A stretch of DNA of 32,000 nt. Source: Candidatus Fokinia solitaria (GTDB lineage Bacteria > Pseudomonadota > Alphaproteobacteria > Rickettsiales > Midichloriaceae). The stretch spans positions 720,001 through 752,000 of the forward strand of contig NZ_CP025989.1 of the NCBI RefSeq assembly GCF_003072485.1, given 5' to 3'. Below, one piece after another: positions 1 to 27,591 of this stretch. The first letter of the stretch is position 1. The number at the start of each line of letters is the position of its first letter. The translations under genes and the position numbers were made by a program. The notes below the pieces were generated by a model, which was not told the DNA's origin, made no database searches, and saw nothing but the letters and a program-made list of their open reading frames with translations.

Positions 1-3000
1 GCTCAGATGCTGCTTTTTCTAATGAACTTTTTGTTTGGTCTTTTTGGATCGACTGCGCTGTAATCATGCTTTGTTTTAATCCAATCAGTACTTGCAACTT
101 CGGATCTTGGAAAAAAATACTGCCTTCTACACTATAACCAGCTTCCATTACTCTGATCATATCATCGACATCTACCATCACTTTATTCACTTTTTGCTCA
201 TATTCTTTCGAAGTAGATTGAAACTTCTTTGCTAGCACCCTACTCTGCTGCGAAAGAGATGATACTTCTGGTTCTGTTCCTGTCTCTGAATTTGGTATTT
301 TCAACTGCGAACCTCCTTTTCGCGCTGAGCTTTGCGAAGTTTGCACTATCTTGCGCTGCATTCTATCATGAAAATCTTTTCTAGCATTACGTTCTTCAGC
401 GAGTTCAGATATATTCTTCGCTTTCTTGAAAGCATCATATAATTGTTTTTGCTCCGCGCTAAAAGCATTGTCATTCTCGATCATAAGAGAATTTAGCTCA
501 GATATTTTCTGAGTAAGTGCGATTTGATTTTTGTCTAGTTCTATAACATCTTTATTCATTAGATTAATTTTTTCCTGATATTCTTTCAATATCTCTTGAT
601 CTGTCTCATGCATTCTCTTGTATTCCTTTTGCGTTTTCTTCATCACAGTATACGTCTGCGTCTCGCTCTGATATCGCTCACTTACTTCTCGTTTTTTTAT
701 GAGAGATTTGTCCAGCACCTTCATTACTGCGAATTGCCGTATTTCTGGTGACGTTGCTGCTGGCTGTATACTTCCTTCTAATATTTTTTTATTGTTCTCT
801 AATCGCTGCACATAAGCATCCTGCAGAGGCAGCAGTTTTTGGAGCTTGTCTGATATGATTTTCTTTTTATACGCTTCAGTATAAAGATTTACGCATTCAT
901 CTGTAATATCTGGGACGCCATGTTTCATCATGTTTATATTATCCGTGCCTATTACTGCTCTCTCCTCCTCCAATATTGCGCCTCGTTCGTCATACATAAG
1001 CTCGAGCTTTTGTTCTGATACAACTATAACATCCTGCACTACCTTTAGCTTCTCGAGAGTCGAATCATGTATTTCCTTTGCCGCATCTACAACGGTTTTT
1101 TCAGTAATCTTCATGATTCCTAATTTCTTCTGACATGCTAGAATAAATGCACGTAACGCAGAATCGTACTCTTGCATTAATACTGCTTCCATCGTCTCGT
1201 CTATTGTATCTTGAGACTGAAACCTTCTAATTTTCACTCTCGATTGATCCAAATCGCTCAAAGCTTTCTGAGTATCTGCATCAGATATAACGGGATTATT
1301 TTTTTGAATTTCATCTACTATGTCGCTAAAATTTGAATCACTAACTGGCTTTAATATTTCTAGCTTTTTTGTATTATCACTTATTTCGTTCGTTATTTCC
1401 GATCGCTTCTTCTTTAGATGCTGCCATCTCTCGTCTTGCTCTAGACTACGAAAAGGACGTTCGTCTAATTCTTTATATTCCACATTCATCGTCTTCAGCG
1501 ACTGCTCATCAGCGTCAACTTTGCGCTGTAAAACTAGTAATTCACTCAAGTTCTGTAACTTTTTATAATAGCCACTACTTGCGGCATCACTTGCATCCTC
1601 AGCATCTAATATCTTTTTCTTCTGGTCAAGAGTATACTGTAACAACTCTTCTTCGTCCATTTTTTTCCCTTTCTCATCCGATACTAGGTCTATTCTCTTG
1701 TCTATTTTTTTTTGCTCTTCTAGATAAAACATGCGAGCAGCTCGCACTTTTCCTATCTCCTCGGATAGCTCATTACCCCCGAACCTTTCATTTATGGACG
1801 TAAGCTCATGCTGTGCTATATCTTGCAGGTTACTCGTCTTTATCGTAGAAAGAGATGATTCTTCCATCTGTATAAGTTGAGTATGTAACGAAGATGCTTC
1901 TTTCTTTATCTGTAGCAGCATTGCACCATTTGACAACGTAACTTCGCCGCCCTCTTTTTTCTCAGCATCTTCTACTGTTTTTAGCTCATTCTCAGCACTT
2001 TGCTTTAACTTTTGCATTGCATGATATAATTTCTCTCTCTTTTCATACTGATTACTGAAGTCAAAGTATTTCATCGCATCTTTCACTGCTAAAATATTAT
2101 CATCTAGAAATGCTATTATTGCTTTTAACTGCTTTTTTAATACACTGCTACGACATACAATCCCCTTACTAAGCCAGTCATCCATTTTCATATCTTTGAA
2201 AGTAGGAATAATATCATCAGAACGTGCTCCTACTAACTCCATTAAATCTGCGTTTAAAACTGCGATTTCATCGCCAACTGCTTTCTTTTCAAGCTCAATC
2301 TGCCTCTCATCTACTTGCAGTAATTGAGCTACATCTGCAGCACGCTGACTTTGATACGCATCATCTAGCTTTTGAATATCTGTTTTAAATTGCTCGTTTA
2401 GAAAATCTTCGCCTCTCTTCAAGCGCTTTGCTAGCTTATTATCTTGCCTCCATAAATCTTGCCTTTGGCGCTCCAATTGCATCAACTTCTCTTCGCCTTC
2501 CTGTATATCAGTGACAAATCTCAACTCTTTCATTATCGCTTTCTGCAGAAACTTTTGCTGTAACAGATCCTTATCAGCGTTTGCTTTATTATCTTTTAAG
2601 TCTTTCAGATCTGACATCATTCGAAGTATAGTCTCCATTCCTCCTCTTCCAGCAATATCTACTCCGTTTAGATCTGCATTATCGAAAAACTCGCCTATCT
2701 CTGAGGCCTGAGCATCACGCTGCACTATAGCTTTATCCGGAGATAATTCTAGCGATACGGTAATTTCTAATTTTCTCCATGCATTTTCCATCTCACGATG
2801 TCGGAAAACTTCTCTTATAGCTTTTTCACTTGAGAAGTTTTCATTTTTTTCATGATATTCTGCGTTCTCTTCATCGAAAATTTTCGATATTGCATGATGT
2901 AGATTTAATATTTTCTCTTTTTCAGACTCGATACGCTCGCGCGCCTCAACTCTAGAATCGCGCTCGTGCTGCCGCTGCATCGCTATATCAGTTTTTACCA

Positions 3001-6000
3001 TTTCAGCTTTAAAAAGATCTACCGCATACGCTACTAATGGTGGCATCTTTGCTACAAGCTTCTTTGCACTCTCATGATTGAGTAACGACAACATCTTTGC
3101 AGCATAAGATGAATACTGAGTAGTACTCCCTGGCGTTATCTTGAGATTATTAGCACTATCTAGAATCTGCACCAAGAATTCTTGAAACTGAGACAAATAT
3201 TCCTTTTGCTCAACTAATGTTTTCTTGTATAACTCTTCTTTTTCCTCTTCCTGCTTATGCTTTTCCTTTAAGTACTGTAAAGATTTGAATGCATCAGACA
3301 CTGGGATACTATCACGATAAAACTCCGTTTCTTTTAGAAATTCTTCTAATTTCTGGCGCTCTTGTTCTATTTTTACCATCCCTCTAAAAGCCTCTTTTTC
3401 ATCATCAGAAAAACGGCCCCATTTATTGAAGTTGGTTTCATGCAGAGAAGTTATCTTCTCCTTCGTTGTCTTATTCCATTCTCTCCCCTCCTCTGTTTTG
3501 TTACTCTTTTCGTAACGCAAATACTCCAAAACTAAATCTAAAATATCCCTTCCATATTGAGTCTTTCCAGCTCGCTGTAGCAACTCTACTTCATGATTCT
3601 GTTTTGCTTTCGCTGCATCAAACTCACGCTGAATGCTATTAACTGCATCCTTGTAGGATAACAATACATTATCGTATACACGTTCTGCATCACTCTTCTT
3701 TGGTAGTTTTGCTAATACTTTCTTTATATCGTCTTTTCCTTTCTTTATTAGCATCGCTTTCTCATCTTTATTTTCTAAAATAGCAATAGTCTCCTTTAAA
3801 TGCGCAACAGACTGAGCGTGCAAATCGACATCGCCGCGTACTGCTAAATCTTCTTCCGCAGCATTCCACAGTTCTAATTTACTCAAGAAGCTTTCATTTG
3901 CCTCTATATGGCTCTGTACTTGCACCAAGAATGCACTTCTCGTAGAAGTATATAATGCAACGGCTTCTCCTACTGTTGCAGGATGTTGTGCCTGCTCTAT
4001 GTTAATTTTATATTTCGCAAAAACTTGCCCCGTATTGTGATTGCTTATCGCATTAACTGCCGTTGTTAAGGAAGTACGTAGCTCTGCTTGATTCTCTGGT
4101 CGTTTTTGCCCCTCTAATGCTTGCAATAATTTCTCGTCAGCCTCAGCATTCTGTTGAATTTGTGCCAGGATATCATTTATCAATTGATCATGTAATTGAC
4201 AAGCAGCCTGCCACTCTGTTTCAGATAACTGTCTCCCTGCATCACTGATAACATCTTCATTAGGATTTTGAAATTTTTGCAGCATCGTCTCGATCTGCAC
4301 CTTCTGTGCGGTAAGAGAGCTCTTTTCTATAAGCTTAAGCAGATCTTTTAAATCTTTGTACACTATAGCAGAGTTAGACTTTTGAAGAACAAACTCACCA
4401 GAAAGTTCAGTAAGTTTTTGCTTCAACACCAAACTACGACCGATGTTTCCACGAATGTCAGACTTAAGATGCCCTATCATGTCTTGATATTCACCGATCT
4501 TTTGATCTTCCGGAGAAACTGCTCTTGGATTCAGCAAGTCTTTAAGCGCTTTAAGAGTCCTATCCTTCGCGCGTTGCATAGTGTCTCTTTCCATAGAGCA
4601 ATTTTCTAATAGCCCGGTAACTTTTGTATAATGCACACTTACTGCTTTAGTATTGGCACTTTCCACGTTTTCAGCATTAGTTGGAGCATTTAATTTCTGC
4701 GACAATCCCGAATTCGTATCTTGTTCTTTTTTAAGCGTGACAACGAGAGCATTTCTGAGGTCTTTATATGATATAGCGGCCTCTTTATACGCTGCCTCTT
4801 CAGGAGACGTATTTTCTAAAACTTGCAACTTTTCTTTCATCTTACCAACGTCAGAGAATGCACTTCGTACTTCAATTCTTTCTGCAAAAGTATCAAGCTT
4901 CTTTAAATAAAGATTTATTTCTTGACCATCATTACGTCCAGATGGCACTGGTATGGCATTCAACTCCTCCAAAAGTAGTTTATTTTTACCGCCATTATCT
5001 GCAGTCAGTTTTGTAATAAGAGCATTTTTCAATTCTACGCATAATGCTATAGCATTTGCGTACGTTACTTCATTTTTTACGCGATATAACTTCATCGCAT
5101 CGATATCGTTCTTAAAATCTTTCTGACACTTTTCCAAGATTGGAGAGACATTCGCCTCCCACTTCGAGTCTGCTACTGGATTTTCTGTCACTAGAGTAGA
5201 TAAGTCTTGCAGCACTTTCTCATCGTAAACACCATCATTTTTCTTCTCTTCAATTGTAACAAGAAGAGCCTTGATTTTAGGATCATTTTCTATCTTCAAT
5301 CTCTCTGAGAAATACACATTCATTTCCTCTCTTTCTTTCATCGCTGCTTCAGATATTTGCCATGCTTTTATATCTGCCATGAAAGACGGATGTGCGTTTA
5401 TGCCTCTCTCTAATGAAGCCATCAAACTCGAATAATAATTTTTCTCTTTCTCTAAGTCGCTCTGCTGCTTCTTCTTTTCGTCTATCTGGTCTTGAATCCC
5501 GTCTATAGCTAAAGAAATTGCATTTCTTTCGTCCTGAAGTACAGGTATTTTCAACCTATCATATGTGTTAGCTAACTCGTACTCTTTATCTGCTAGCTTC
5601 ACTTCCTGCAGCTTTTTATCATTCTCCAAAGCAATAATTTCCATAGATACTTCATTTAGTTCCTCATTTATCTTCTCAAGCTTTTTCTCCTTTAATAGAG
5701 TGTGCTTACCTACTATTTTCTTTAAATATGTATCATAATATTCTGGAAGTATAAAATCTGTTCGATGTTGTATTCTAATATCTTGCAATTCCTCCAACAT
5801 TCCTGCCGCTTTATCTAACGAATTCTCCTTCTTATCAGAATAAGTAAGCAGCATTGATAAATTGTGTAGCATCTTCCATATAGTCAAATTATGCTCTTCC
5901 ACACCTATTACCATGCGTTGTGTATCTGATGGGTTTATTTGCGGTAATGCAGCAGCGCATACTCCTTCCGTGCTTCTTCTTAATATTGCTAACGCAGTAT

Positions 6001-9000
6001 AAGATTCGCTATAAGGTATAACTCTCAATACTATGATTCCTTGCGGCACTAATGCACTCGATAGCTTTGCATATGCTGAATCTTTTTGCTCCTGCGTCAG
6101 CATCACATCAGTAACATTTTCAGATTTCCATTGTTCTATCTCTCTTAACCTTTCTTGTATTTCAAAATCTTTCTCTGGACTTGCTATAGTATCATGTCCG
6201 CGATCTGAATTTCGAAGTCTTACCAACTCCGACCATAATGAATCAATGTTATGCTCGTATTCTTTTAATTGCTGCAATACATGTTCTCTATTATATTGCA
6301 TTACCTGTAATAGCATAGCTTTCTCTTGTTTCTGTGCTCCGTCCGCTAATAAAGCAAGATCATGATTTGCTACTTTAATAGCTTCGTCTAATTCATTCAG
6401 CTCGTCACGGCAATTCATACGCCCTTTTCTTGCAGCGTATAAAGACTGCCTCACTTGATCTATCTCGAATTGTATTGTTTTATCCGCTCCTGTGACAATA
6501 AGTCCGTACCTTACTTCAAAGTTATGCAATTGGTCATACGCTTCTCTAATAGTATTGCTGAGTTCAAATCGCTGATGTTTTAACGATTGTAACGCCAATG
6601 ACGTTTCATCAATCTGCCTTTGCAGAAGTACTTTCGTTATCCCATCTACCGGCTGTGATTTTGATAATGTTAATAATGTTTCTTCATGCGCCATTATACT
6701 TTGCCCTATCACTGTAAAATCCTCAATTTTCTTCGATATCATATCCTCTAATCTTGTCTTTTGTTCAGGTTCCGATATTGATTGATCTCTCGATGTTCTT
6801 TCTTCAAACGTGCTAAGCCATTTTTCATTCTGACTTACAGGCGTCGTCTCTAAAAGATTAAAACACTGTGTTTCCGCATCTCTATGTGCATATTTTTTAG
6901 CTTCCAAAGTATACTTTTCATTCATGTATAGTGGATGCTCTATCATATCGTCATCACATAATCCCTCAATCTCTTCCAACTTTTTCGAAACGTATAATAC
7001 CGGGCTATCGCTCAATTTTACAGGAGGCACTAGCTGTTGCTGCATATTTTGAACAACTCCTCCTTGCGCAAAAGCTTGGCTGAGATCCTGCACTTGTACT
7101 ACTGTTTCTTGCTCTACAACTATTCGTTTTGCTGCAATCTCAAGATCGATTTCAGCTATCTTAGCAGCTATCGAGTTCTCTTGCTCACATCTACTTATTT
7201 CCAATTTATTTTGCGCAAGCTTCTGCGCTTGCAGATCTTTTATTGCATCTTGTGCGGACTTGATATTATGCTCTACACCTATGATTGCGTCTTTTGTCTT
7301 CTCAATCGCAGCATCATACATATGTAATGTCTCTATAGAATCATTTACAAACACGCGTTGCGCATCGATGAGTTCTTGATCTTTCTTTACTGCTCTCTCC
7401 AACTCTTGTAATTTCTTTACTTGTGCATTTTTATCTTTTAAGGCCTGTAAACGAAGCTGTTCGATCTCTTTCAACTCTCCTTGATGCTTTTGCAATGTCG
7501 TTCGAGCATTTTGAAGATTAGTCGCCAAAGCAGCATCTCCTGCCACTTGTCGTTCTAAATGACGTAATGTATCAATCTTCTTCTTTGCTGCATCTCCTTC
7601 TGTTATCTGTCTTCTTCTAATCTGCTGCAGGAGAGCTATATCAGGCAATGCCTTCAAATCAACATCTCCTCTAATCACTCCTTCTATTATTCCTTGGTAA
7701 ATTGTCTCATAAGAATTATTCTCTGCACTAGCACGCGCAAGATTATCTTTCATGCCCTTTACTTCTACTATCATCTGCTTCAATACTTCCACTTCTTCCT
7801 TTTTCATTTCTAATTTCTGTAATTCGCCTTGCATTCCTACAACACCATCTTCAACTGATAGCAATACTTCGTTAACCTTCGTTTTTTTGGCTTGTAACTT
7901 ATTCAAGGCTTCTTCTCTCTTCTGAATTTCAATACGAGTGTTTTCTGCATCGTTCTCCGGCAACATTTCCGCTTCTAACGCCGCCTCTATATCAAGATAA
8001 AGACTTATCTTGATATTCGCTTGCTCTAAATTACTTCCTGTTAATGTTTTTCTTTGCGCTCTTGTATTTATAAGTTCTTGATGTACATTTGCTTTGAGTG
8101 TTTCAATCTCTTCTCTATTACGAAATTTTTCAAAATAAGGCATTGGCTGCCCATTTAAATACATCTCTTTTTTTTTGTAAAAGTCAAGCTTTTGCTTAGC
8201 GCCATAATTGCGTAATGACTCACTATACCAGTCTTCCGCAATTTGACATATACTTTCAGCAATAGATACTTCATGTACTGCTTTATGTATTCTTGCAACA
8301 ACGTCTATTGCTTCTTGACTACTTATAGTCTGATGCTTTTGCTCTAATGCTCTTTTTTTATCAAGTAATTGCCGTACTTTCGTATCAGGATTAGCGAAAT
8401 ATGCATCCATTGATTGGAATTGCTGTAGTACATCTGACTTTAGACCAAGAGAAATTAACTGCTGTTGATGCATATTCATCCAAGCGTCAAAACTGCCGTC
8501 TATACGATTAAACGTAACATTATCAGCAGGTAAAACATCACTTTTTTTCCATAACAAATTCTCAAGTAGTACCTCTTCTATCTGCATTGCTGATTGAAGC
8601 GCATCACGCCTAAAAGCATATGTTGTAGCACTATCTGGATTGAGAGGTATCGCTTGTTCCTCTCCAGTAGCTTCTGGCGCTATGGCTGATCTTATCAGCC
8701 CTCCTATATTGACAGAATCTGCAGCAATCTTATCAGACAGATCTGCATCATTCATTGTTGTGTATGCTTTACCATATGCATCTATTTCTTTACGAAGCTG
8801 AATTTCATTCTGTTTTACAATTTTCATTTCATCTTCTGTACTTTTCAAGCGAGCGCGCATTTGGCTTATATTCGCATCTATACCACTCACATCAACACCA
8901 TCTTGAATACGAAATGCCCGTACAATAAGCATATTCTCTATTCTCTTCGCGTCCGCAAAAATCATATCTTGCAATACTGCACCATACGATTGATGATCTT

Positions 9001-12000
9001 TTAGCTTTAATTTCGCAATTTCCACCGTAATTATCAATTTCTGCAATAGAGTATAATTTTCACCTTGTAGAGTAGGTATCAAACTGTTTGCTGAATTCTC
9101 ATTTAATACGATGTCTTTTTCAAGGAGTGCTAGCTTCTCTATTGAATCATTCCTCAATTGGTGTTTTTGTATAATATCAGACTGTATTTTTTCTAGAAGA
9201 AATCTTCTGTAATTTTCATCGCTGGAATGCCAAAGATAGTACATTCCGTGAAGCTCACTTTCTTTGAAATTACTTTGAATAACATGCTCGACTCCATCTC
9301 TTGCGGTTGCATTCAAACTTTTCGCACTTCTGAGCACCTCTTTTTCAATAGATTGTGCAGTTGCTACAACTACATTTTGGTCAGTACGTGCTGTTAAAGG
9401 TAGCTGAGAGAAATATTGCCCCGCTTCTTGCAAGCGAGACAGCTCTCTATCTATCTTGCCAAAATTCACTCTCTCAGACGCCCAATTAGAGTAAGCTGTA
9501 GCTGTTCTTTGCAATTCTGCTGTAACAACAACGCAATCTTGCACAGTATGTCTTTGCGCAGGAGACATCTCGTTAAATTTATCTATCCACTGCGAAGTAC
9601 GTTGCCGAGTTTCTGCTCCTAATTTAAAGAGTTCTCTTGCATTAGCTCCTTCAGACTGTTTTTGCTCATACAATAGCGTAACTTGACCGTTTCGTTCATA
9701 ATATTCTTGTCCTTCAACTGCAACTCGCAATGTATTGTACAACTCTTTTTGACGTTGAGAATTAATTGTCGCTTCTCTTGATTGCTTCAGATAAGACGAT
9801 ATTAAGTTCTTTTGTAATTTTTCTTCTGCAATTTCAAATTCAGTCCTTGCGTAATCCAAATCTCCAGCAACTTTAGTAGCTAAAACACCTTCAAGCTCTA
9901 CTATCTTATTTTCTGATGCGACAAGCGCCTGCTCTAACCTTACAATATTACCTTCTGCAACATTGAGAGATAAGTCATTCTGCGCAGCACTGTCCTCTAA
10001 TGCCAATAACGTAGCGTCGCGTATAGAATTATCCGTTGATGTAGATTCTGCTAAGGGCTGAAGAGCAGGTACGTTGGTATAATCTTTATTAATAAACTGA
10101 TACTTGCTTACTGCAATAGTGATCTCTTTTATTCTCTCTTTTGCAAAATGTATCGTTCTGTCGTATCTTCCTATCTCTTCAATAAGTTGAAGATGTTTCT
10201 TATATAGATCGTATACTTCTCTATGCTCAGCATCAAGCACTGGATTTGATGCGCAATATTTCAGGAAATGTTCCAAAAGCAGCTGATAATTTGACAACTC
10301 TGCTACTGTCACATTGCTTTTATCCATTAGAATGGCTTCATTCATTTTCCTTTCAATATGCAGGCTGTTCTGCGCTGCTATTAAAATAGGTATTAAATCG
10401 ATTTCTTTTTGTATTGCATCCTTCATATCCTTAATATCCAACGCTATTTCTTTTTTACTATACGATCCTGTATTTTCTCTCACTGCGCTATACTCATTAT
10501 TCGCTTTTTTCAGTTTGTCCTTTATATCATCAATCTCTCTTTCAAAAGCTTTCTTCTGAAGCTCTTTTTGCTTTAAATCTCTAGCACAATCCGATGACTT
10601 TTGCGCACAATCTTGAGAATTGCAAGTAACAAGTAAATTACTTAGCTTTACATTTTCTTCTGCTATTTCTGCACTAAGCCGTAATATTTTACTTTCTAAA
10701 TCGGTTATCTTGAGATGGAAGCTTTCCTTAATATTATCTAACTCTCCTCTTCTTTTGTAAGACACTGCACCATTTTGCATTGCATTGCTTTTCTGCGAAG
10801 GTTTAATCTTTCTTCCAAGAACGGCTCCATTCTCTTTAAAGGTGACATTTTTCTTTTGAAGATTACGATTTTTTTGTGGCTTCTCACCTAATACGCAAAA
10901 TTCTCCATAGCAAGGCGTTGTAGTAGAATCGAGATTTTTGAGATCAAATTTTTGCTTGAACTGTAGCGTATCAGGCGCTTGTTCTAATATATGCGATTGG
11001 GAATCATTGCTCTCTGAAACAACGGTAGCAGGCCCTTGCTTCAATTGTAACCGACTCATTACATTTTGATGAGCTGCATTTGATTGCGAAGCTGCTCCTG
11101 CTGCTTGCTTCTGTGGCTCTACAGTTGTTTCTTCACGCTGATATAGCGGCACATGAAGTAATTTCGCTACAGAAGAGAGATCTTTGTAATTAGATAATTC
11201 CTTTTCCAATTGCCGTATCAAATTCGCTTCCTGCACCATCCTCGCTATATAAGAGTTACCACGCTGCTTTAATGATTGAAGCTCGGATTCTAGTGCGCGT
11301 ACTTTCTGTTCACGTTCTGTAACAGTATTTATACTCTTCTGTAAGCGTGCTTTTTCTTTCAGTAATCTTGCAATTTGCCCTATAGTTTCTGGAGGATGTG
11401 CTTCTCCTTCTTGCAATGAAGCAAGTGTTCCTTGTAAACGACGTATCTCACTATCTAATGCCATTATTCTATTGGCATTAGATTGTGCTTCTGCAGCAAT
11501 AGCTTGAGCGCCTCCTAACTCCTGTATTTTCGCGACGATTTTTTTCTCACTCTCTTTTTCATGAATCATTTTTGAACGTAAATCCGCTATCTTTGTTTGC
11601 GCTCTAAGTAATCGATTTTTCGTTTTTATGAAATTGAACCTCTCTTGTTCTTCGCCTTCTTCAAGATTTTGCAATGTACTACCAAAGTTATTCACACGAT
11701 CTTCTAAAAGCTGTATATCATTGTAATACGGCGTAAGCATAGATTGAATATTGTAATGAGTCGCTAATGCATCTACCGCATCCAATCGCATTCTCATCTC
11801 ATCTATAGATCTACGATATTCACCTATATCTCTCACATGCACATCACGCGCTTCACGTAGCATCCTTGCTCTGCTTTCAATATTACTAAGATTTATATCG
11901 TCTAAAGGCGTACCATTTTCTAAACCAAGATAATAATCTTTAAGTGTATCTTCTAATTCTTGCTGATCTTGTAAAACGTCCTGTAATTGCGCTTCTGCAG

Positions 12001-14356
12001 CTTTTAATTTTTCGGATAAATTATCGATCTTTCTTTCCACGTTCTGCAACGTTTTCTCATTTCCTTGCTGCGCTTCTGTTTTCTGACCGTTCTTTCCTGC
12101 ATTATGATACATTATTGCCTTCTGCTGTATTGTTTTACCTCCACCTGCAAAATTCACGTTTATCGGTACAGATTGAGGTTTAGAATTCTCTTCAATAAAA
12201 CGTTTTAATTCTTCTAATAGACTTTCTTCTGTCGATGGCGAACTATCATCTCCTAGAAAACGCTTCATTTTTTTAGGAAGATGCTTTTTTATGATTTCTA
12301 TTACTGTATTGCGGTTTTGATAAATAGCCCAAACAGCGCCTATACCGAACTTAATATATGTATCATACTTCGATAAAAATGTTTCATCGTCCTCTTTTTC
12401 TATTGCTATATCTGGAATCACGATCTGCTCATCACCATTTTCCTTCTCAGGTACATTCTCTTGCATCTCTTCTTCCGTAGGTACATCTCCTGACTCTTCT
12501 CCTTCCGTAGACTCGCTCTCTTCCTCAGATGGTACAGTATCATCCAAGTTTCCTTTATTATCATTCTCTCCTTCCTTAGGTACACTTCCTTCCTTGGGTA
12601 CAACATTCTTTACTACTTCTAGCAATGTATCATCCTTCTTATTTTCCACTGTATCTACTTCATTATCTTGTATCTCAATCTCCTCACTTACTTCTTCAAC
12701 ATTCTCTTCATCATACTTCACTTCTTCAACATTCTCTCCATCAGGTACATTCTCTTGCATCTCTCCTTCCTTAGGTACATTCTCTTGCATCTCTTCTTCC
12801 GTAGGTACATCTCCTGACTCTTCTCCTTCCGTAGACTCGCTCTCTTCCTCAGATGGTACAGTATCATCCAAGTTTCCTTTATTATCATTCTCTCCTTCCT
12901 TAGGTACACTTCCTTCCTTGGGTACAACATTCTTTACTACTTCTAGCAATGTATCATCCTTCTTATTTTCCACTGTATCTACTTCATTATCTTGTATCTC
13001 AATCTCCTCACTTACTTCTTCAACATTCTCTTCATCATACTTCACTTCTTCAACATTCTCTCCATCAGGTACATTCTCTTGCATCTCTCCTTCCTTAGGT
13101 ACATTCTCTTGCATCTCTTCTTCCGTAGGTACATCTCCTGACTCTTCTCCTTCCGTAGACTCGCTCTCTTCCTCAGATGGTACATCATTACTTAAGTTCT
13201 CTTCTTCCTCAGGCAGTATATCACTTAAGTGCTCCTTATTATTATCATCACCATTTTCCTTCTCAGGTACATTCTCTTGCTTCTCTCCTCCCGTAGGTAC
13301 ATCTCCTGGTTCTTCTCCCTCCGTAGAGTTACTCTCTCCATTAAGTGGCACATCATTACTTAAGTTCTCTTCTTCCTCAGGCAGTACATTACTGTTTCCT
13401 TTATCATCATTCTCCTCCTTCTTTTCGAAGATATCTTTCACTACCAACACACTTTCGCTTTCTTCCTCGCTTACCTCTTCTTCCATAAATGCATCTTCTT
13501 GTTTCTTCTCTATTAGCGCAACACTCGCCGCTACTTCTGATGATGTACCCTTCTCTTCCTCTATAGAAATATCTTTTTGCTCTTTCTCCTCCTCTATAGG
13601 TACAATACTCGCTACCATTGCTTCCTGCCGTTTTAGAAACATTCTATGTTCAATATTCAGAAGCAGCATTTTAATTCTTTGAAACAGCAATATGCTTCCT
13701 TCTGATATGTCATTCTTTATTCTTCGTGTGAAAGTCTCATCACTTTCAAAGTTCTCATTTTTACCGTTCTTCTCTGCATTATTTTCGAAAGAGACAACAT
13801 TATCTTCGAAAGAGACGGTATCATCGTCATCTTCTTCTGTAATCGATGATTCTTGAAAATCTACAATTTCCTCTTGCTCTTCAGTCGCTTCTTTCATAGA
13901 AACTGCTTCCTTATTATCATCTAAGAGAATTAGATTAACAGCTGAAGCAACATTAGGTCCGTTTTGCACCATCATCATCTGTCGTACTTTTTGTAGCAGA
14001 CTAACTTTTCTTTCCTGCATTATACGATTTTTATACGACTCAGTAGGACGTACACGAAGCGCATACTCATATCGCAAACGATGTTGCTCAAGTTCTCTTA
14101 TATATGGATGCAATAGTGCAAATTCCACGATAAGCGCTTCCTTATTTTCGGCACTATTAACAACACTGATGTCAGCTTTTTTTGAAGCATCAACATTAAC
14201 CTTCGGATCGTAAGCACTTCTATGAAGATCATAACACACTCCACATTCATACCATAAACCCGCAATCAGAACATCTCCCCATCCAATATCGAATATTTTT
14301 ACCCTGCGAAAAGCTCTGTCTTCTACCTCTAGATGCCAAAATAATGAATTAAGCAT
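1..14356 (-). CDS. Giant hypothetical protein, >4,785 aa, 3' end beyond left window edge. Acidic tandem-repeat N-terminal region plus very long E/K/L/Q-rich (coiled-coil-like) body. Candidate secreted effector or surface protein.
   Basis: ATG at 14356-14354 (minus), preceded by an in-frame TAA at 14365-14363. I translated the minus strand by eye in the frame whose codons occupy plus coordinates 3k+2..3k+4 and found no stop down to position 2. About 20 lines across 480-14280 were spot-checked for in-frame tta/cta/tca and none was found. N-terminus reads MLNSLFWHLEVEDRAFRRVKIFDIGWGDVLIAGLWYECGVCYDLH. The last codons in the window read ...LKQSMITAQSIQKDQTKSSLEKAASE. The plus strand is strongly T/C-rich, as expected for the antisense of GAA/AAA/GAG-rich coding sequence. 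The ORF track lists no minus-strand fragments in 1-12400, which fits one edge-truncated ORF rather than a decayed pseudogene. Confidence 0.88.
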   Translation of the reverse strand, partial: MLNSLFWHLEVEDRAFRRVKIFDIGWGDVLIAGLWYECGVCYDLHRSAYDPKVNVDASKKADISVVNSAENKEALIVEFALLHPYIRELEQHRLRYEYALRVRPTESYKNRIMQERKVSLLQKVRQMMMVQNGPNVASAVNLILLDDNKEAVSMKEATEEQEEIVDFQESSITEEDDDDTVSFEDNVVSFENNAEKNGKNENFESDETFTRRIKNDISEGSILLFQRIKMLLLNIEHRMFLKRQEAMVASIVPIEEEKEQKDISIEEEKGTSSEVAASVALIEKKQEDAFMEEEVSEEESESVLVVKDIFEKKEENDDKGNSNVLPEEEENLSNDVPLNGESNSTEGEEPGDVPTGGEKQENVPEKENGDDNNKEHLSDILPEEEENLSNDVPSEEESESTEGEESGDVPTEEEMQENVPKEGEMQENVPDGENVEEVKYDEENVEEVSEEIEIQDNEVDTVENKKDDTLLEVVKNVVPKEGSVPKEGENDNKGNLDDTVPSEEESESTEGEESGDVPTEEEMQENVPKEGEMQENVPDGENVEEVKYDEENVEEVSEEIEIQDNEVDTVENKKDDTLLEVVKNVVPKEGSVPKEGENDNKGNLDDTVPSEEESESTEGEESGDVPTEEEMQENVPEKENGDEQIVIPDIAIEKEDDETFLSKYDTYIKFGIGAVWAIYQNRNTVIEIIKKHLPKKMKRFLGDDSSPSTEESLLEELKRFIEENSKPQSVPINVNFAGGGKTIQQKAIMYHNAGKNGQKTEAQQGNEKTLQNVERKIDNLSEKLKAAEAQLQDVLQDQQELEDTLKDYYLGLENGTPLDDINLSNIESRARMLREARDVHVRDIGEYRRSIDEMRMRLDAVDALATHYNIQSMLTPYYNDIQLLEDRVNNFGSTLQNLEEGEEQERFNFIKTKNRLLRAQTKIADLRSKMIHEKESEKKIVAKIQELGGAQAIAAEAQSNANRIMALDSEIRRLQGTLASLQEGEAHPPETIGQIARLLKEKARLQKSINTVTEREQKVRALESELQSLKQRGNSYIARMVQEANLIRQLEKELSNYKDLSSVAKLLHVPLYQREETTVEPQKQAAGAASQSNAAHQNVMSRLQLKQGPATVVSESNDSQSHILEQAPDTLQFKQKFDLKNLDSTTTPCYGEFCVLGEKPQKNRNLQKKNVTFKENGAVLGRKIKPSQKSNAMQNGAVSYKRRGELDNIKESFHLKITDLESKILRLSAEIAEENVKLSNLLVTCNSQDCAQKSSDCARDLKQKELQKKAFEREIDDIKDKLKKANNEYSAVRENTGSYSKKEIALDIKDMKDAIQKEIDLIPILIAAQNSLHIERKMNEAILMDKSNVTVAELSNYQLLLEHFLKYCASNPVLDAEHREVYDLYKKHLQLIEEIGRYDRTIHFAKERIKEITIAVSKYQFINKDYTNVPALQPLAESTSTDNSIRDATLLALEDSAAQNDLSLNVAEGNIVRLEQALVASENKIVELEGVLATKVAGDLDYARTEFEIAEEKLQKNLISSYLKQSREATINSQRQKELYNTLRVAVEGQEYYERNGQVTLLYEQKQSEGANARELFKLGAETRQRTSQWIDKFNEMSPAQRHTVQDCVVVTAELQRTATAYSNWASERVNFGKIDRELSRLQEAGQYFSQLPLTARTDQNVVVATAQSIEKEVLRSAKSLNATARDGVEHVIQSNFKESELHGMYYLWHSSDENYRRFLLEKIQSDIIQKHQLRNDSIEKLALLEKDIVLNENSANSLIPTLQGENYTLLQKLIITVEIAKLKLKDHQSYGAVLQDMIFADAKRIENMLIVRAFRIQDGVDVSGIDANISQMRARLKSTEDEMKIVKQNEIQLRKEIDAYGKAYTTMNDADLSDKIAADSVNIGGLIRSAIAPEATGEEQAIPLNPDSATTYAFRRDALQSAMQIEEVLLENLLWKKSDVLPADNVTFNRIDGSFDAWMNMHQQQLISLGLKSDVLQQFQSMDAYFANPDTKVRQLLDKKRALEQKHQTISSQEAIDVVARIHKAVHEVSIAESICQIAEDWYSESLRNYGAKQKLDFYKKKEMYLNGQPMPYFEKFRNREEIETLKANVHQELINTRAQRKTLTGSNLEQANIKISLYLDIEAALEAEMLPENDAENTRIEIQKREEALNKLQAKKTKVNEVLLSVEDGVVGMQGELQKLEMKKEEVEVLKQMIVEVKGMKDNLARASAENNSYETIYQGIIEGVIRGDVDLKALPDIALLQQIRRRQITEGDAAKKKIDTLRHLERQVAGDAALATNLQNARTTLQKHQGELKEIEQLRLQALKDKNAQVKKLQELERAVKKDQELIDAQRVFVNDSIETLHMYDAAIEKTKDAIIGVEHNIKSAQDAIKDLQAQKLAQNKLEISRCEQENSIAAKIAEIDLEIAAKRIVVEQETVVQVQDLSQAFAQGGVVQNMQQQLVPPVKLSDSPVLYVSKKLEEIEGLCDDDMIEHPLYMNEKYTLEAKKYAHRDAETQCFNLLETTPVSQNEKWLSTFEERTSRDQSISEPEQKTRLEDMISKKIEDFTVIGQSIMAHEETLLTLSKSQPVDGITKVLLQRQIDETSLALQSLKHQRFELSNTIREAYDQLHNFEVRYGLIVTGADKTIQFEIDQVRQSLYAARKGRMNCRDELNELDEAIKVANHDLALLADGAQKQEKAMLLQVMQYNREHVLQQLKEYEHNIDSLWSELVRLRNSDRGHDTIASPEKDFEIQERLREIEQWKSENVTDVMLTQEQKDSAYAKLSSALVPQGIIVLRVIPYSESYTALAILRRSTEGVCAAALPQINPSDTQRMVIGVEEHNLTIWKMLHNLSMLLTYSDKKENSLDKAAGMLEELQDIRIQHRTDFILPEYYDTYLKKIVGKHTLLKEKKLEKINEELNEVSMEIIALENDKKLQEVKLADKEYELANTYDRLKIPVLQDERNAISLAIDGIQDQIDEKKKQQSDLEKEKNYYSSLMASLERGINAHPSFMADIKAWQISEAAMKEREEMNVYFSERLKIENDPKIKALLVTIEEKKNDGVYDEKVLQDLSTLVTENPVADSKWEANVSPILEKCQKDFKNDIDAMKLYRVKNEVTYANAIALCVELKNALITKLTADNGGKNKLLLEELNAIPVPSGRNDGQEINLYLKKLDTFAERIEVRSAFSDVGKMKEKLQVLENTSPEEAAYKEAAISYKDLRNALVVTLKKEQDTNSGLSQKLNAPTNAENVESANTKAVSVHYTKVTGLLENCSMERDTMQRAKDRTLKALKDLLNPRAVSPEDQKIGEYQDMIGHLKSDIRGNIGRSLVLKQKLTELSGEFVLQKSNSAIVYKDLKDLLKLIEKSSLTAQKVQIETMLQKFQNPNEDVISDAGRQLSETEWQAACQLHDQLINDILAQIQQNAEADEKLLQALEGQKRPENQAELRTSLTTAVNAISNHNTGQVFAKYKINIEQAQHPATVGEAVALYTSTRSAFLVQVQSHIEANESFLSKLELWNAAEEDLAVRGDVDLHAQSVAHLKETIAILENKDEKAMLIKKGKDDIKKVLAKLPKKSDAERVYDNVLLSYKDAVNSIQREFDAAKAKQNHEVELLQRAGKTQYGRDILDLVLEYLRYEKSNKTEEGREWNKTTKEKITSLHETNFNKWGRFSDDEKEAFRGMVKIEQERQKLEEFLKETEFYRDSIPVSDAFKSLQYLKEKHKQEEEKEELYKKTLVEQKEYLSQFQEFLVQILDSANNLKITPGSTTQYSSYAAKMLSLLNHESAKKLVAKMPPLVAYAVDLFKAEMVKTDIAMQRQHERDSRVEARERIESEKEKILNLHHAISKIFDEENAEYHEKNENFSSEKAIREVFRHREMENAWRKLEITVSLELSPDKAIVQRDAQASEIGEFFDNADLNGVDIAGRGGMETILRMMSDLKDLKDNKANADKDLLQQKFLQKAIMKELRFVTDIQEGEEKLMQLERQRQDLWRQDNKLAKRLKRGEDFLNEQFKTDIQKLDDAYQSQRAADVAQLLQVDERQIELEKKAVGDEIAVLNADLMELVGARSDDIIPTFKDMKMDDWLSKGIVCRSSVLKKQLKAIIAFLDDNILAVKDAMKYFDFSNQYEKREKLYHAMQKLKQSAENELKTVEDAEKKEGGEVTLSNGAMLLQIKKEASSLHTQLIQMEESSLSTIKTSNLQDIAQHELTSINERFGGNELSEEIGKVRAARMFYLEEQKKIDKRIDLVSDEKGKKMDEEELLQYTLDQKKKILDAEDASDAASSGYYKKLQNLSELLVLQRKVDADEQSLKTMNVEYKELDERPFRSLEQDERWQHLKKKRSEITNEISDNTKKLEILKPVSDSNFSDIVDEIQKNNPVISDADTQKALSDLDQSRVKIRRFQSQDTIDETMEAVLMQEYDSALRAFILACQKKLGIMKITEKTVVDAAKEIHDSTLEKLKVVQDVIVVSEQKLELMYDERGAILEEERAVIGTDNINMMKHGVPDITDECVNLYTEAYKKKIISDKLQKLLPLQDAYVQRLENNKKILEGSIQPAATSPEIRQFAVMKVLDKSLIKKREVSERYQSETQTYTVMKKTQKEYKRMHETDQEILKEYQEKINLMNKDVIELDKNQIALTQKISELNSLMIENDNAFSAEQKQLYDAFKKAKNISELAEERNARKDFHDRMQRKIVQTSQSSARKGGSQLKIPNSETGTEPEVSSLSQQSRVLAKKFQSTSKEYEQKVNKVMVDVDDMIRVMEAGYSVEGSIFFQDPKLQVLIGLKQSMITAQSIQKDQTKSSLEKAASE
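12449..13184 (-). repeat. Perfect tandem repeat, 324-bp unit (108 aa), 2.27 copies, in frame inside the giant ORF
   Basis: The string aggtacattctcttgcatctcttcttccgtaggtacatctcc starts at 12449, 12773 and 13097 (spacing exactly 324). Copies 1 and 2 look identical base for base by eye. Copy 3 matches through 13184 and then diverges. The off-frame track ORFs 12418..12606 and 12718..12930 begin 324 bp apart with identical peptides. The unit encodes ...DDTVPSEEESESTEGEESGDVPTEEEMQENVPKEGEMQENVPDGENVEEVKYDEENVEEVSEEIEIQDNEVDTVENKKDDTLLEVVKNVVPKEGSVPKEGENDNKGNL. Confidence 0.95.
13178..13400 (-). repeat. Diverged older repeat copies (about 168-bp spacing) related to part of the 324-bp unit
   Basis: acatcattacttaagttctcttcttcctcaggcagta occurs at about 13182 and about 13350. 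The encoded segments, LPEEEENLSNDVP(S/LNG)E.S.STEGEE(S/P)GDVPT..E.QENVP, are recognisably homologous to the SEEESESTEGEESGDVPTEEEMQENVP part of the perfect unit. Confidence 0.8.
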
Positions 14357-14385
14357 TACACTTTAAAGTATAGTAACACACGAGC

Positions 14386-14391
14386 ATTATA
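14386..14391 (-). promoter_or_regulatory. Candidate -10 box (TATAAT on minus strand) about 30 nt upstream of the giant ORF start
   Basis: Plus-strand attata at 14386-14391 reads TATAAT on the minus strand. There is no convincing -35 or Shine-Dalgarno, so this is a sequence-only guess. Confidence 0.3.
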
Positions 14392-14474
14392 GCATGAAGC
14401 TTGCGCAAAGAGAAATGTTTATCTGCTTTTACGAAGAGATAAATATCTTATATCTTTCTTTAATCTTAATCTTA

Positions 14475-14505: not shown

Positions 14506-14528
14506 AAGATTATATCATTTAAACACAG

Positions 14529-15968
14529 CTAAGCAACTGCGCACTTCTTCTTCAATTTTAAGAGGCATTTCTGAAGTTTCTTCGTACCATCCATAATTTC
14601 TGTAAAATCGGATTTTCTCATACTTTCTAATGCTGTTTCCGCTCTACGTAGAACATCTAAACTTCTGAAAAATACACTATCCAGAATATTCATTGCTCTT
14701 TTGCCAGCTTTCAAAGCATCCATAACACTTTGATGAATCACTTTCACATCACAACCTTTGACTGCGCCAATACTTTTTTGCAGCAGTTCACCAATCATAT
14801 TAATCTTGGCAACACAATCTAATGCAGAAGATATAGAAGGCTGTTCTTGACTGACAGTATGTGCGCGATAATTAAAATCTTGCGATATGCGATTTTTCAT
14901 AGACAGTACAAGGTTTGAAAATGTGCTTTGTAATTTTCCAGTACCGAGAGACGCGGAAGTACTCTGTAAAGCATCTTCATACATTTTCTCCAAGGAGACA
15001 AGTTTTTGTGATACCGCATTTAAAGTGCACCACGCAAAATCTTTTGCTTCCGTAGTTTGCTGTTTTCCTCTCTCAAGCATTTTCTGCTCGTATTCTCTTT
15101 GTACCGCAGCTACCCTCACTTCTGGAGTAACATGCAAATCTCTTGCTAATCCAATCTTTGACATACACCATATAATCCACTTATGCACATCGAGATGATA
15201 CCATTTATGGCCATTTCTATAATCTTTACCAAATGCATGGTGGTAATTATGCCAATTCTCTCCTAATAACAGCAATGCAAGCCACCACACATCTACAGAA
15301 CTATCATCAGCATAACGTCTCTTACCCCAAAAATGACATATAGAATTCACAGAAAAAGTCATTTGCTGCTGCAATGCTCTACCTAAGCCACAGAACAAAA
15401 AGCCTGCTAGCATAGCTTGAATTGGCGCATTGAAAAAAGCAAAGCCAAGAAGTGCGGTAGGCACTACTTGAGTAAATAAAGCTAATTGCCAATAATTTTT
15501 TAGTTGCCACACAAGCATCTTATCTTTCCCTAATGTAGATATCGTACCTTTGTCTATGTGCTTCGTAGTAGATTCTCCAAATATCATCCAGCCGAGATGC
15601 GCCCAAAAAAAGCCTTTCAGAGGATTTTGATATTTCACTGGAGTATGCGGATCTTTATCTGTGTCAGGGTATGCATGATGAAATTTATGATCTGACACCC
15701 AGGCAAGTACTGGACCTTGTAATGAAAAAGCGCTTGTAAATATCAATATTATTTCTACAACTCTATTAACTTTATAAGCACCGTGCGACCACAATCTATG
15801 TAGCCCTACTCCGACTGATATATTAGAAACATAGTATGCTATCACTGCAAGCCATAATTCTTTCGTGCATACTCCATAAAACGCAATGTACAGCGCTATG
15901 CCAAGTAGTATGAGAACAGGATATACCACAAGAACGGTAAAAACAGGCCAATTAATCTTAGAATTCAT
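14529..15968 (-). CDS. Membrane fatty-acid (acyl-CoA/acyl-lipid delta-9 type) desaturase with a roughly 190-aa C-terminal helical extension
   Basis: 479-aa track ORF. N-terminal transmembrane segments are followed by three histidine boxes: HRLWSH, HKFHHAYPDTDKDPH and HNYHHAF. These are typical of the stearoyl-CoA desaturase-like family. Residues from about 290 to 479 carry no motif I recognise. Confidence 0.9.
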   Translation of the reverse strand: MNSKINWPVFTVLVVYPVLILLGIALYIAFYGVCTKELWLAVIAYYVSNISVGVGLHRLWSHGAYKVNRVVEIILIFTSAFSLQGPVLAWVSDHKFHHAYPDTDKDPHTPVKYQNPLKGFFWAHLGWMIFGESTTKHIDKGTISTLGKDKMLVWQLKNYWQLALFTQVVPTALLGFAFFNAPIQAMLAGFLFCGLGRALQQQMTFSVNSICHFWGKRRYADDSSVDVWWLALLLLGENWHNYHHAFGKDYRNGHKWYHLDVHKWIIWCMSKIGLARDLHVTPEVRVAAVQREYEQKMLERGKQQTTEAKDFAWCTLNAVSQKLVSLEKMYEDALQSTSASLGTGKLQSTFSNLVLSMKNRISQDFNYRAHTVSQEQPSISSALDCVAKINMIGELLQKSIGAVKGCDVKVIHQSVMDALKAGKRAMNILDSVFFRSLDVLRRAETALESMRKSDFTEIMDGTKKLQKCLLKLKKKCAVA

Positions 15969-17926: not shown

Positions 17927-18589
17927 GTGATATACTATCAAGTAATGCATATCATAACTACTCATAGAAAAATATATACAATGCAATTACAAAAGGAAAA
18001 ATTTAATAAGTTTGAAATACCAACTTTATACAACATAATATCACTGCTGCCAAAATCTACAAATGTACTTGCTTTGTTGAGAGATCTATGTACACCACCT
18101 GAATTGAGAATTTTAAGAGAAAGATTGACAATAGCTTTATATCTTCAGCATAAACCTAATTTCTCATATAAGATGATCAAAAATCTCACAGGAAGCAGCG
18201 TGACAACTATAATGAAAGTAAATCACGTACTACAAAATAAAATTTGTAATGGATATAAAACGATACTACCTCAGTGTAATATCTATACTTCGCTTGAAGA
18301 GGCGCTTTTAAAGACAGGCACTGCGGAAAGATGTAAAGATCTCATATCGGATCTGTGTACCACTTATGAAATAAATATATTCGAAACAAGATTAGTCGTG
18401 GCGTATTTATTATCAAAAGGCTCTAGTAATAAGGAAATAATAAATTTTATCTCAGTCAGTACAGCGACATTAACTAGAATAAGAAGATTTTTAAATTATG
18501 AAAATAATAGAGGATATACGGCGGCATTTCATCTATTTGACAAGTACAACTGCGATAACAATACAGCTATGTTAAAATTTAAAATATAA
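17927..18589 (+). CDS. Tandem-duplicated YerC/YecD (TrpR-like) helix-turn-helix protein
   Basis: 220-aa ORF. Two homologous halves are visible: LLRDLCTPPELRILRERLTIALYLQHKPNFSYKMIKNLTGSSVTTIMKVNHVLQNKICNGYKTIL and LISDLCTTYEINIFETRLVVAYLLSKGSSNKEIINFISVSTATLTRIRRFLNYENNRGYTAAF. The second closely resembles the YerC/TrpR-family core as I remember it (D.CT..E......R..VA..L..G.....I......S.ATI.R..R.LNYG..GY). The start may be the internal Met at 17981. Confidence 0.75.
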   Translation: MIYYQVMHIITTHRKIYTMQLQKEKFNKFEIPTLYNIISLLPKSTNVLALLRDLCTPPELRILRERLTIALYLQHKPNFSYKMIKNLTGSSVTTIMKVNHVLQNKICNGYKTILPQCNIYTSLEEALLKTGTAERCKDLISDLCTTYEINIFETRLVVAYLLSKGSSNKEIINFISVSTATLTRIRRFLNYENNRGYTAAFHLFDKYNCDNNTAMLKFKI

Positions 18590-26754: not shown

Positions 26755-27378
26755 TTATCCCTTCGTAGCTTTTTCATCTCCAGGTAATACTACATCCTTC
26801 CATGGATTTTCTGAATCAAAATTCCTATATGCCTGATCTAATACTATAGGTTTTTTCACAACTGTGCCTGTATTAGGTTCGAAACATGCATCATGATATC
26901 CACTCAAAGGAAAATCTTTTCTTAGAGGATGATGAGTAAAGTCGCTCTCATTTAATATTCTCTTAAGATTAGGATGCGATAGAAACTTAATACCAAACAT
27001 GTCATACACTTCTCTTTCGTACCAATCCGATGATCGGTATATTTGATACACTGAAGGTATCGCCTCATCTTGAGAAATAGGCAAGTGCACTCTTAAACGC
27101 CAATTATTAGTAACGCTTAGAAGATGATATACGACTTCAAATCTCTTCTCTCTGTCCGGATAATCCACAGCACAGACATCTAAGAGCATTTCAAATGATA
27201 AAATCTCGTCATTCTTTAAAAAATTCAAAAATTGCACAATGTGAGTGCATGAATGTAGTGTCGCATAACTCTCTTTCAAAGGAGAATTGTGCTGAAATTC
27301 GCATAAAGAAAGAACATCATCTTGTACTATTGCTTTATACTTCACAAGCAGTGAGTATAATTCGCTTTGACGAGTCAT
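26755..27378 (-). CDS. nuoC: NADH-quinone oxidoreductase subunit C
   Basis: 207-aa ORF. Recognisable complex I 30-kDa subunit motifs are DYPDREKRFEVVYHLLS, WYEREVYDMFGIKFLSHPNLKRIL and HPLRKDFPLSGY. Confidence 0.9.
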   Translation of the reverse strand: MTRQSELYSLLVKYKAIVQDDVLSLCEFQHNSPLKESYATLHSCTHIVQFLNFLKNDEILSFEMLLDVCAVDYPDREKRFEVVYHLLSVTNNWRLRVHLPISQDEAIPSVYQIYRSSDWYEREVYDMFGIKFLSHPNLKRILNESDFTHHPLRKDFPLSGYHDACFEPNTGTVVKKPIVLDQAYRNFDSENPWKDVVLPGDEKATKG

Positions 27379-27389
27379 AAAAGTAATAT

Positions 27390-27587: not shown

Positions 27588-27591
27588 TCTT

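Follow-up and report, generated by a model that had tools for sequence, protein, structure and literature searches.

A giant, lineage-specific gene of Candidatus Fokinia solitaria and the possible role of its largely helical product as an exported fibrous protein

The window analyzed here is a 32,000-nucleotide stretch of the chromosome of Candidatus Fokinia solitaria (NZ_CP025989.1, positions 720,001 to 752,000). It carries on its minus strand the first 85% of a giant gene, Fsol_00664. Ca. Fokinia solitaria, a member of the Midichloriaceae (Rickettsiales), is an obligate cytoplasmic symbiont of Paramecium and possesses a single chromosome of 837,348 bp, which was the smallest genome in Rickettsiales at publication (genome paper). 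Fsol_00664 comprises 16,983 nt and thus 2.03% of this genome, in line with the large coding investment ascribed to it by a first-pass annotation, a reading of the window made from the letters alone. The same annotation assigned the DNA to an obligate intracellular alphaproteobacterium, which agrees with the alpha-type transfer-messenger RNA (tmRNA) encoded in the window and with seven neighboring proteins, which match proteins of Ca. Fokinia solitaria exactly.

Translation of the minus strand from the start codon to the left edge of the window yielded 4,785 codons without a stop, and the frame is still open at position 2. Since the other five frames over the same interval hold 140 to 471 stops (427 and 471 in the two other minus frames, 140-280 in the plus frames), this open reading frame (ORF) is not a product of chance. 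Its translation is identical to residues 1-4,785 of AWD33442.1 (WP_108673453.1), a protein of 5,660 amino acids (aa) and 646 kDa with a pI of 5.0 and 26 Cys residues, which is annotated as "hypothetical protein Fsol_00664" in both GenBank and RefSeq. The stop codon therefore sits 875 codons to the left of the window. The C-terminal 875 aa are taken from the protein record. Thus, the single uninterrupted frame with a stop two codons upstream of its ATG, as first described, was borne out, and the protein record supplies the total length that the first-pass annotation had asked for. It had also stressed that the frame was missing from the ORF track; this merely reflects that ORFs running off the edge were unlisted, and the gene is annotated in both databases. 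The description as uncharacterized is apt: "hypothetical" is the only label of the gene, it goes unmentioned in the genome paper, where none of the words giant, largest, longest, and hypothetical occurs, and full-text searches on Fokinia revealed no publication discussing it. Frame integrity, for which confirmation by long reads had been proposed, is backed by the hybrid PacBio and Illumina assembly (genome paper). Relative synonymous codon usage in frame correlates with that of the pooled neighboring genes (r = 0.91, versus 0.42 and 0.72 in the wrong frames), also in each third of the gene, and the GC content is the same as that of the flanks. Fsol_00664 is a genuine, intact, and native gene of Ca. 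Fokinia solitaria.

A HMMER search with aa 641-1840 against 1.84 billion representative proteins returned two matches, Fsol_00664 itself and WPX98166.1, a protein of 4,423 aa from Ca. Fokinia crypta. A check for homologs beyond the immediate lineage thus yielded Fokinia only. WPX98166.1 is colinear with Fsol_00664 from aa ~1222 to the C-terminus, with 31% identity over 4,269 alignment columns, and the F. crypta frame comprises at least 4,483 stop-free codons. For the giant gene, we obtained nonsynonymous and synonymous divergences (dN and dS) of 0.67 and 1.68 and hence a ratio ω of ~0.40 (NG86), which is a rough value with dS near saturation. The flanking region is colinear between the two species at ~78% nucleotide identity. 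Thirteen of 14 neighboring proteins are 72-93% identical, with hyp146 as the exception at ~40%, and the ten neighbors tested showed dN values of 0.04-0.19 (0.36 for hyp146), dS values of 0.7-2.4, and ω values of 0.05-0.15. Fsol_00664 evolves 4 to 10 times faster than its neighbors at nonsynonymous sites, and net purifying selection remains. Because two ORFs of >13 kb cannot stay open neutrally at saturated synonymous divergence, the gene must have been maintained by selection, as its sheer size had initially suggested. The sole other fast-evolving gene in the window is Fsol_00680 (the above-mentioned hyp146), encoding 146 aa with 40-50% identity to its F. crypta counterpart.

The N-terminal part of the protein consists of a short nonacidic region and a hyperacidic region (Table 1). 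The first-pass annotation described the latter as roughly 500 aa of acidic repeats. Acidity indeed extends over aa ~150-660, whereas true tandem repeats are confined to aa ~322-639. Tandem Repeats Finder (TRF) resolved a 324-nt unit present in 2.3 copies at 99% identity, corresponding to perfect 108-aa copies at aa 392-499 and aa 500-607 and a partial third. This array is preceded by a looser, older unit of 168 nt (56 aa; 1.8 copies, 86% identity), and 30-nt sub-repeats were also detected. The 108-aa repeats are recent duplicates. In total, the tandem repeats account for ~950 nt of the 17-kb gene and for <6% of the protein. On the strand opposite to Fsol_00664, a 362-aa ORF is fully contained in the stretch of acidic repeats. 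Rather than a gene, it most likely represents a by-product, its frame being stop-free because the coding strand of Fsol_00664 is rich in GAA and GAG.

Table 1. Features of the Fsol_00664 locus and its surroundings, with positions given in the window
Feature	Position	Strand	Basis or remark
Promoter-like extended -10 element TGCTATAAT, ~30 nt 5' of the ATG, in the 172-nt spacer after the desaturase gene	14386..14394	-	Read from sequence; putative
ATG start codon of Fsol_00664, with a TAA in frame two codons before it	14354..14356	-	Same MLNSLFWH start in AWD33442.1
Open frame of Fsol_00664 in the window	2..14356	-	Translation
Nonacidic, nonrepetitive N-terminal region, aa 1-150	13907..14356	-	Composition; no Pfam/NCBIfam match
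Twin-arginine-like N-terminus, aa 1-32	14260..14356	-	Probably coincidental (see text)
Hyperacidic region, aa 151-660, net charge ~-130, rich in E/D/V/N/S/P/G	12377..13906	-	Charge profile
Tandem-repeat DNA within the acidic region, aa ~322-639	12441..13393	-	TRF, self-BLAST, repeat dissection
Antisense ORF, 362 aa	12594..13682	+	Most likely a by-product
Coiled-coil-like region, aa 760-1040, with the strongest 3.5-residue hydrophobic periodicity	11237..12079	-	Periodicity profile
Polar, slightly basic S/Q/N/K-rich linker, aa 1041-1221	10694..11236	-	Block 1001-1250, net charge +8
Conserved nonrepetitive core, aa 1222-4785 (core extends to aa ~5527, left of the window)	2..10693	-	F. crypta alignment
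Acyl-CoA desaturase gene, directly upstream of Fsol_00664	14529..15968	-	Pfam domain on residues 39-263 of 479
Gene of a 220-aa protein	17927..18589	+	Trp-repressor domain (PF01371) in the C-terminal part only
Permuted two-piece alphaproteobacterial tmRNA, tag peptide ANDNVMHGEERLQTAFA	27357..27714 (27395..27714 in another span)	-	Ordinary
Fsol_00680 (hyp146)	29041..29481	+	Fast-evolving
tRNA-Leu(CAG)	29582..29667	-	Ordinary

Downstream of the acidic region, the protein is characterized by helix-like periodicity. The power of this signal was highest in the blocks covering aa 561-1120, where half of the windows exceeded the 95% null, and hydrophobic periodicity of 3.3-3.55 residues was enriched approximately 2-fold over background throughout aa ~700-4785. 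Of the 56-residue windows of the window-encoded protein, ~22% exceeded the 95th percentile of shuffled sequences. Two parts, aa 1500-2699 and the C-terminal 875 aa (2,075 aa together, about half of the core), were modeled with AlphaFold2 on two-sequence alignments. Because the predicted local distance difference test (pLDDT) scores were low (45 and 49), only secondary structure was taken from these models. Up to the C-terminal tail, the prediction is entirely helical: helices 4-98 residues in length alternate with short loops, and beta structure is essentially absent. As the periodicity is partial and the helices are broken, the core probably mixes coiled-coil-like and other helical segments and does not form one rod. 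The heptad-like character noted initially therefore holds as an enrichment, but not as a continuous property of this part of the protein. Neither self-BLAST nor a profile-profile comparison of two segments revealed internal repeats in the core. Its best-conserved motif, KEYFLAA[VI]NSDYL..NSILYGNS at aa 5082-5111 (KEYFLAAVNSDYL...), lies outside the window, and so does the acidic tail formed by the last ~133 residues up to aa 5660, which is predicted to be disordered (AlphaFold model). The last 60 aa carry a net charge of -15 (F. solitaria) or -14 (F. crypta).

In agreement with the first-pass annotation, we found no Sec signal peptide or lipobox in Fsol_00664. A transmembrane (TM) segment is likewise lacking, the top 19-residue Kyte-Doolittle mean of 1.42 being below the TM threshold. 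The N-terminus (...AFRRVKIFDIGWGDVLIAGLWY...) is loosely twin-arginine-like ('RRVKIF'), followed by a hydrophobic stretch holding two Asp residues. We considered and rejected a Tat signal at this position: no NCBIfam Tat model matched, Tat export is implausible for a protein of 646 kDa, and the resemblance is probably coincidental. Motif searches in Fsol_00664 for RTX (GGxGxD), Walker A, HExxH, and LPxTG were negative. The promoter-like element upstream of the gene was passed over by a promoter consensus scan, as its -35 hexamer matches in 3 of 6 positions only.

The 5' surroundings of the giant gene differ between the two species. In F. solitaria, the gene adjoins the desaturase gene, whose product carries a C-terminal extension of ~200 aa beyond the Pfam domain. 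In F. crypta, the giant gene is located ~26 kb from the desaturase gene (record positions 478-1917), on the opposite strand, and is preceded by lpdA, bolA, and a gene encoding an NDUFA12-domain protein and followed by tpiA and thyX, with virB8 5 kb off. These differing neighborhoods point to a rearrangement breakpoint at the 5' end of the giant gene (window positions 14357-14528). The 5' part of the F. crypta homolog contains a run of exactly 1,500 N (L003 8321-9820; CP110343.1, ~775.0-776.5 kb), which may reflect either masking or a repeat at which the assembly has a gap. Right where this run ends, the homology to F. solitaria sets in, 60 codons upstream of the annotated start of WPX98166.1, and tblastn against the F. 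crypta loci detected nothing matching before aa 1239, where the run sits. The ORF preceding the gap (L003 7738-8320) encodes a TM-like segment, an acidic stretch, and a coiled coil but bears no similarity to F. solitaria, and it is one nucleotide out of phase, provided that the gap length is real. Elsewhere in the window, the 220-aa protein with a partial Trp-repressor domain is 79% identical to its F. crypta counterpart. This protein is present despite the report that the F. solitaria genome supports synthesis of alanine and glycine only.

Database searches did not connect the two giant proteins to any family. Pfam and NCBIfam gave no match at E<=1 for either Fokinia protein, the C-terminal 875 aa included, and PADLOC and PHROGs gave none for either homolog or for the C-terminal 875 aa. 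PDB sequence and profile searches returned matches at chance level only, which in the profile searches were to coiled coils. Foldseek searches of the PDB with both models produced no match at E<=1e-3 and retrieved only generic long-helix proteins with TM-scores of ~0.1 (query-normalized). No relative emerged from two scans of metagenomes and one of viral sequences, which used automatically chosen patterns that were not the most conserved motifs. As the exhaustive protein scan was made with aa 641-1840, relatives matching other parts of the protein could have been missed; with this segment, Fsol_00664 was detected only in the genus Fokinia. The initial impression that the sequence bears no catalytic, ankyrin, autotransporter, RHS, or RTX signature was confirmed by Pfam/NCBIfam and motif searches. 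On the basis of domain and motif searches, we rejected readings of the protein as an autotransporter, RTX toxin, ankyrin effector, SMC protein, phage protein, or component of a defense system.

The lack of an N-terminal signal raises the question of how such a protein might leave the cell. Substrates of type 1 secretion systems (T1SS) are acidic and Cys-poor and carry an uncleaved, poorly conserved C-terminal signal, and some are retained at the surface through an N-terminal module (PMC10225607). One criterion for such substrates is a stretch of 50-100 C-terminal aa enriched in LDAVTSIF residues and poor in KHPMWC residues (PMC10225607). T1SS orthologs are widespread in Rickettsiales (PMC10225607), and multiple secretion systems have been reported for F. 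solitaria (genome paper). Considering its size, acidity, low Cys content, and unstructured C-terminus, the type 1 route appears to be the most plausible one for Fsol_00664. To our knowledge, Gram-negative proteins this large that function extracellularly and have no N-terminal signal are type 1 substrates. LDAVTSIF residues make up 38% of the last 50 aa in F. solitaria and 46% in F. crypta, compared to 49% and 47% protein-wide, and KHPMWC residues make up 14%, compared to 16-18% protein-wide; the criterion is a loose one. Inspection of the C-terminus, where a secretion signal had been anticipated, thus revealed an acidic disordered tail and, with the low Cys content, general T1SS traits, but neither RTX motifs nor a basic tail of the type 4 secretion system (T4SS) type. 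Signals of VirB/D4-type systems are positively charged, and the C-terminus of Fsol_00664 is unlike such a signal because its tail is strongly acidic.

Comparison with known systems yielded partial resemblances. The first-pass annotation related the protein to T1SS- or T4SS-secreted effectors of the Ehrlichia TRP and Ank200 type, a relationship that our analysis did not establish. Like Ehrlichia TRP32, TRP47, TRP75, TRP120, and Ank200, Fsol_00664 belongs to an obligate intracellular member of the Rickettsiales, lacks an N-terminal signal, and is acidic and Cys-poor with acidic tandem repeats (PMC10225607). It also resembles these proteins in being lineage-specific and fast-evolving. In contrast to them, it is 5-30 times larger, shows no sequence similarity to them, and has no ankyrin repeats, no C-terminal LDAVTSIF enrichment was seen by the loose criterion above, and its bulk is a nonrepetitive helical core absent from the TRPs, with repeats contributing only a minor share. 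With the two-step adhesins exported by T1SS (LapA, SiiE, and MpIBP-type RTX adhesins), Fsol_00664 shares the size class of >5,000 aa. Further common traits are the Gram-negative host, the absence of a Sec signal, acidity, and a layout in which a very long extender connects an N-terminal module to an unstructured C-terminus. Surface retention of such adhesins after T1SS export provides an idea of how Fsol_00664 might be held at the cell (PMC10225607). However, Fsol_00664 has no RTX nonapeptides, no match to a retention module, and no adjacent ABC/MFP/TolC genes, and its extender is nonrepetitive and, where modeled, helical, whereas the extenders of these adhesins consist of tandem Ig-like or BIg beta domains.

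Apilactobacillus kunkeei, a bee symbiont that likewise has a small genome, invests several percent of its DNA in Giant1-3, elongated and largely alpha-helical surface proteins of 3,000-8,000 aa (PMC12863079) with a predicted length on the order of 0.2 µm (PMC12863079). Giant1-3 possess a Sec signal peptide, an N-terminal beta-solenoid, helical repeats of 62-366 aa, and C-terminal DUF5776/SH3b wall-binding domains, and their host is Gram-positive (PMC12863079). Fsol_00664 differs from Giant1-5 and Ebh in lacking a Sec signal, a beta-solenoid, core repeats, and a DUF5776 match. Staphylococcal Ebh is a helical surface giant akin to the Apilactobacillus proteins. With crescentin, Scy/FilP-type proteins, and SMC-like rods, Fsol_00664 has in common a helical structure, partial heptad periodicity, and low sequence constraint. 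It is unlike them in being several-fold larger, in its detection in a single genus only, in carrying an acidic tandem-repeat module without an SMC head or Walker motifs, and in its helices, which are broken and do not form one continuous rod. Rickettsial Sca autotransporters are set apart by their N-terminal Sec signal and C-terminal beta-barrel translocator domain; the C-terminal 875 aa of Fsol_00664 gave no autotransporter Pfam match, and its C-terminus is predicted to be helical and then disordered, with no beta structure. On the features that can be read from its sequence, Fsol_00664 thus appears to lack the testable defining traits of every family considered, and its general features come closest to those of the exported giants and the acidic-repeat effectors of host-associated bacteria. 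Repeated units are the typical building blocks of giant proteins in bacteria. The unusual traits of Fsol_00664 are its nonrepetitive helical core of ~4,300 aa, its detection in one genus, and its share of a very small genome.

The reading that we prefer, with a probability of about 45%, is that Fsol_00664 is an exported, surface-associated fibrous protein facing the host. It would be exported without an N-terminal signal, most plausibly by a type 1 system, and would remain at the surface of the bacterium or in its vicinity, extending into the cytoplasm of the host as a long fibrous molecule with negative charge. The absence of a TM segment, the low pI, the small number of Cys residues, and the acidic disordered tail are compatible with export, and we also count the proximity of virB8 to the F. 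crypta copy among the export-compatible features. Electron microscopy has shown Fokinia cells lying naked in the cytoplasm of the host, lined up between the cortical trichocysts and devoid of flagella (PMC4701390). A narrow rim that is free of ribosomes and contains fine fibrils encloses each bacterium, and in some cases the same material trails behind the cell as a tail (PMC4701390). An elongated, negatively charged helical protein of 646 kDa is a plausible alternative source of these fibrils. In this scenario, Fsol_00664 would make up both the rim of "fine fibrils" devoid of ribosomes and the fibrillar "tail" around these membrane-less symbionts. It may help them to stay in place among the cortical trichocysts of Paramecium and/or protect them from autophagy by the host. 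It is tempting to go further and to speculate that Fsol_00664 is the fibrillar material itself, an acidic helical filament on the half-micrometer scale, exported by a T1SS without RTX, that serves as a ribosome-excluding coat and tether and guards against autophagy, and that it would represent an undescribed class of nonrepetitive giant helical exoproteins. In this specific form, we consider the proposal unlikely.

Several observations weigh against an exported fibrous protein. The authors of the electron microscopy study ascribed the fibrils to host actin (PMC4701390). The last 50 aa show no LDAVTSIF enrichment over the whole protein in either species. There are zero GGxGxD motifs in either homolog, no NCBIfam or Pfam model, retention-module models included, matches the N-terminus (aa 1-260), and no T1SS (ABC/MFP/TolC) genes adjoin the giant gene in either species. 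In F. crypta, nothing visible corresponds to the N-terminal ~1,220 aa with their acidic repeats, although the run of N lies there. The structural models combine low pLDDT scores with coverage of only about half of the core, and the exhaustive protein scan was restricted to the segment from aa 641 to 1840. Moreover, fast evolution and an all-helical make-up are also typical of intracellular coiled-coil scaffolds.

This leads to the possibility that Fsol_00664 acts inside the bacterium as a giant coiled-coil-rich scaffold, analogous to the coiled-coil-rich proteins of other bacteria, located in the cytoplasm or at the inner membrane and serving cell shape, polarity, division, or nucleoid organization. 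Such a role would suit a protein that has neither a signal peptide nor a TM segment nor a recognizable secretion signal and for which an all-helical structure with partial heptad periodicity is predicted, and the tolerance of coiled-coil proteins to fast change would explain both the 31% identity and the ω of ~0.4; the TM-like segment of the pregap ORF in F. crypta could act as an anchor. However, housekeeping scaffolds normally span wider taxa than the single genus in which Fsol_00664 was detected, and a Walker A motif or SMC-type head is missing. The perfectly identical 108-aa acidic tandem repeats and the net charge of ~-130 in the N-terminal part also speak against a scaffold, both being hallmarks of exported, host-facing Rickettsiales proteins. 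Few inclusions within the bacteria were seen by electron microscopy (PMC4701390). Taken together, we regard an intrabacterial scaffold as a somewhat unlikely but serious alternative.

The same acidic tandem repeats, along with the acidic pI, few Cys residues, and lack of an N-terminal signal, could mark a soluble effector that a T1SS or T4SS releases into the cytoplasm or nucleus of the host, where it would act on host targets in the manner of the Ehrlichia TRPs and Ank200 and form no coat. Lineage specificity and fast evolution of Fsol_00664 and the presence of virB8 in Fokinia are consistent with this, and a related family exports its TRPs and Ank200 by T1SS (PMC3417381, PMC10225607). We nevertheless consider a soluble effector quite improbable, given that homology to TRPs or Ank proteins and ankyrin repeats are lacking, that the C-terminus does not clearly show the T1SS composition and has no basic T4SS-type tail, and that F. 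crypta shows no visible conservation of the acidic repeats. What is conserved is a structural-looking helical core of 4,300 aa, unlike short linear-motif mimicry. We know of no T4SS substrate near 646 kDa, a size that exceeds the known substrates by far. At the other extreme, Fsol_00664 could be nonfunctional, that is, a relic in decay, an ORF left open by chance in purine-rich DNA, or an artifact of assembling the repeats. The absence of any known domain, near-identical 324-nt repeats that are open to misassembly, and the run of N and truncated annotation in the F. crypta record would fit such a view. Yet stop-free frames of 4,785 and 4,483 codons persist in two species at a saturated dS of ~1.7, ω is below 1, codon usage in frame is that of the genome, and the repeats form only a small part of a gene whose assembly has long-read support. 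The two-species comparison effectively refutes this view, and we consider it hardly credible. The remaining probability falls to something other than the explanations listed here.

Our analysis turns a gene publicly annotated as hypothetical into a solid finding, to which we add a function that we infer. Two percent of a very small genome is devoted to one gene that has no relative detected outside its genus and no recognizable domain. Costly, fast-evolving, and lineage-specific, Fsol_00664 is an obvious candidate for whatever makes the lifestyle of Fokinia special. If it acts within the bacterium, it would rank with the largest scaffold proteins known from bacteria. If it is exported, it would add a nonrepetitive helical type to the giant bacterial exoproteins, a catalog dominated by repetitive beta-domain adhesins. 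And should Fsol_00664 indeed constitute the halo around the cells, it would provide a molecular handle on how a cytoplasmic symbiont of ciliates achieves its positioning and avoids xenophagy.

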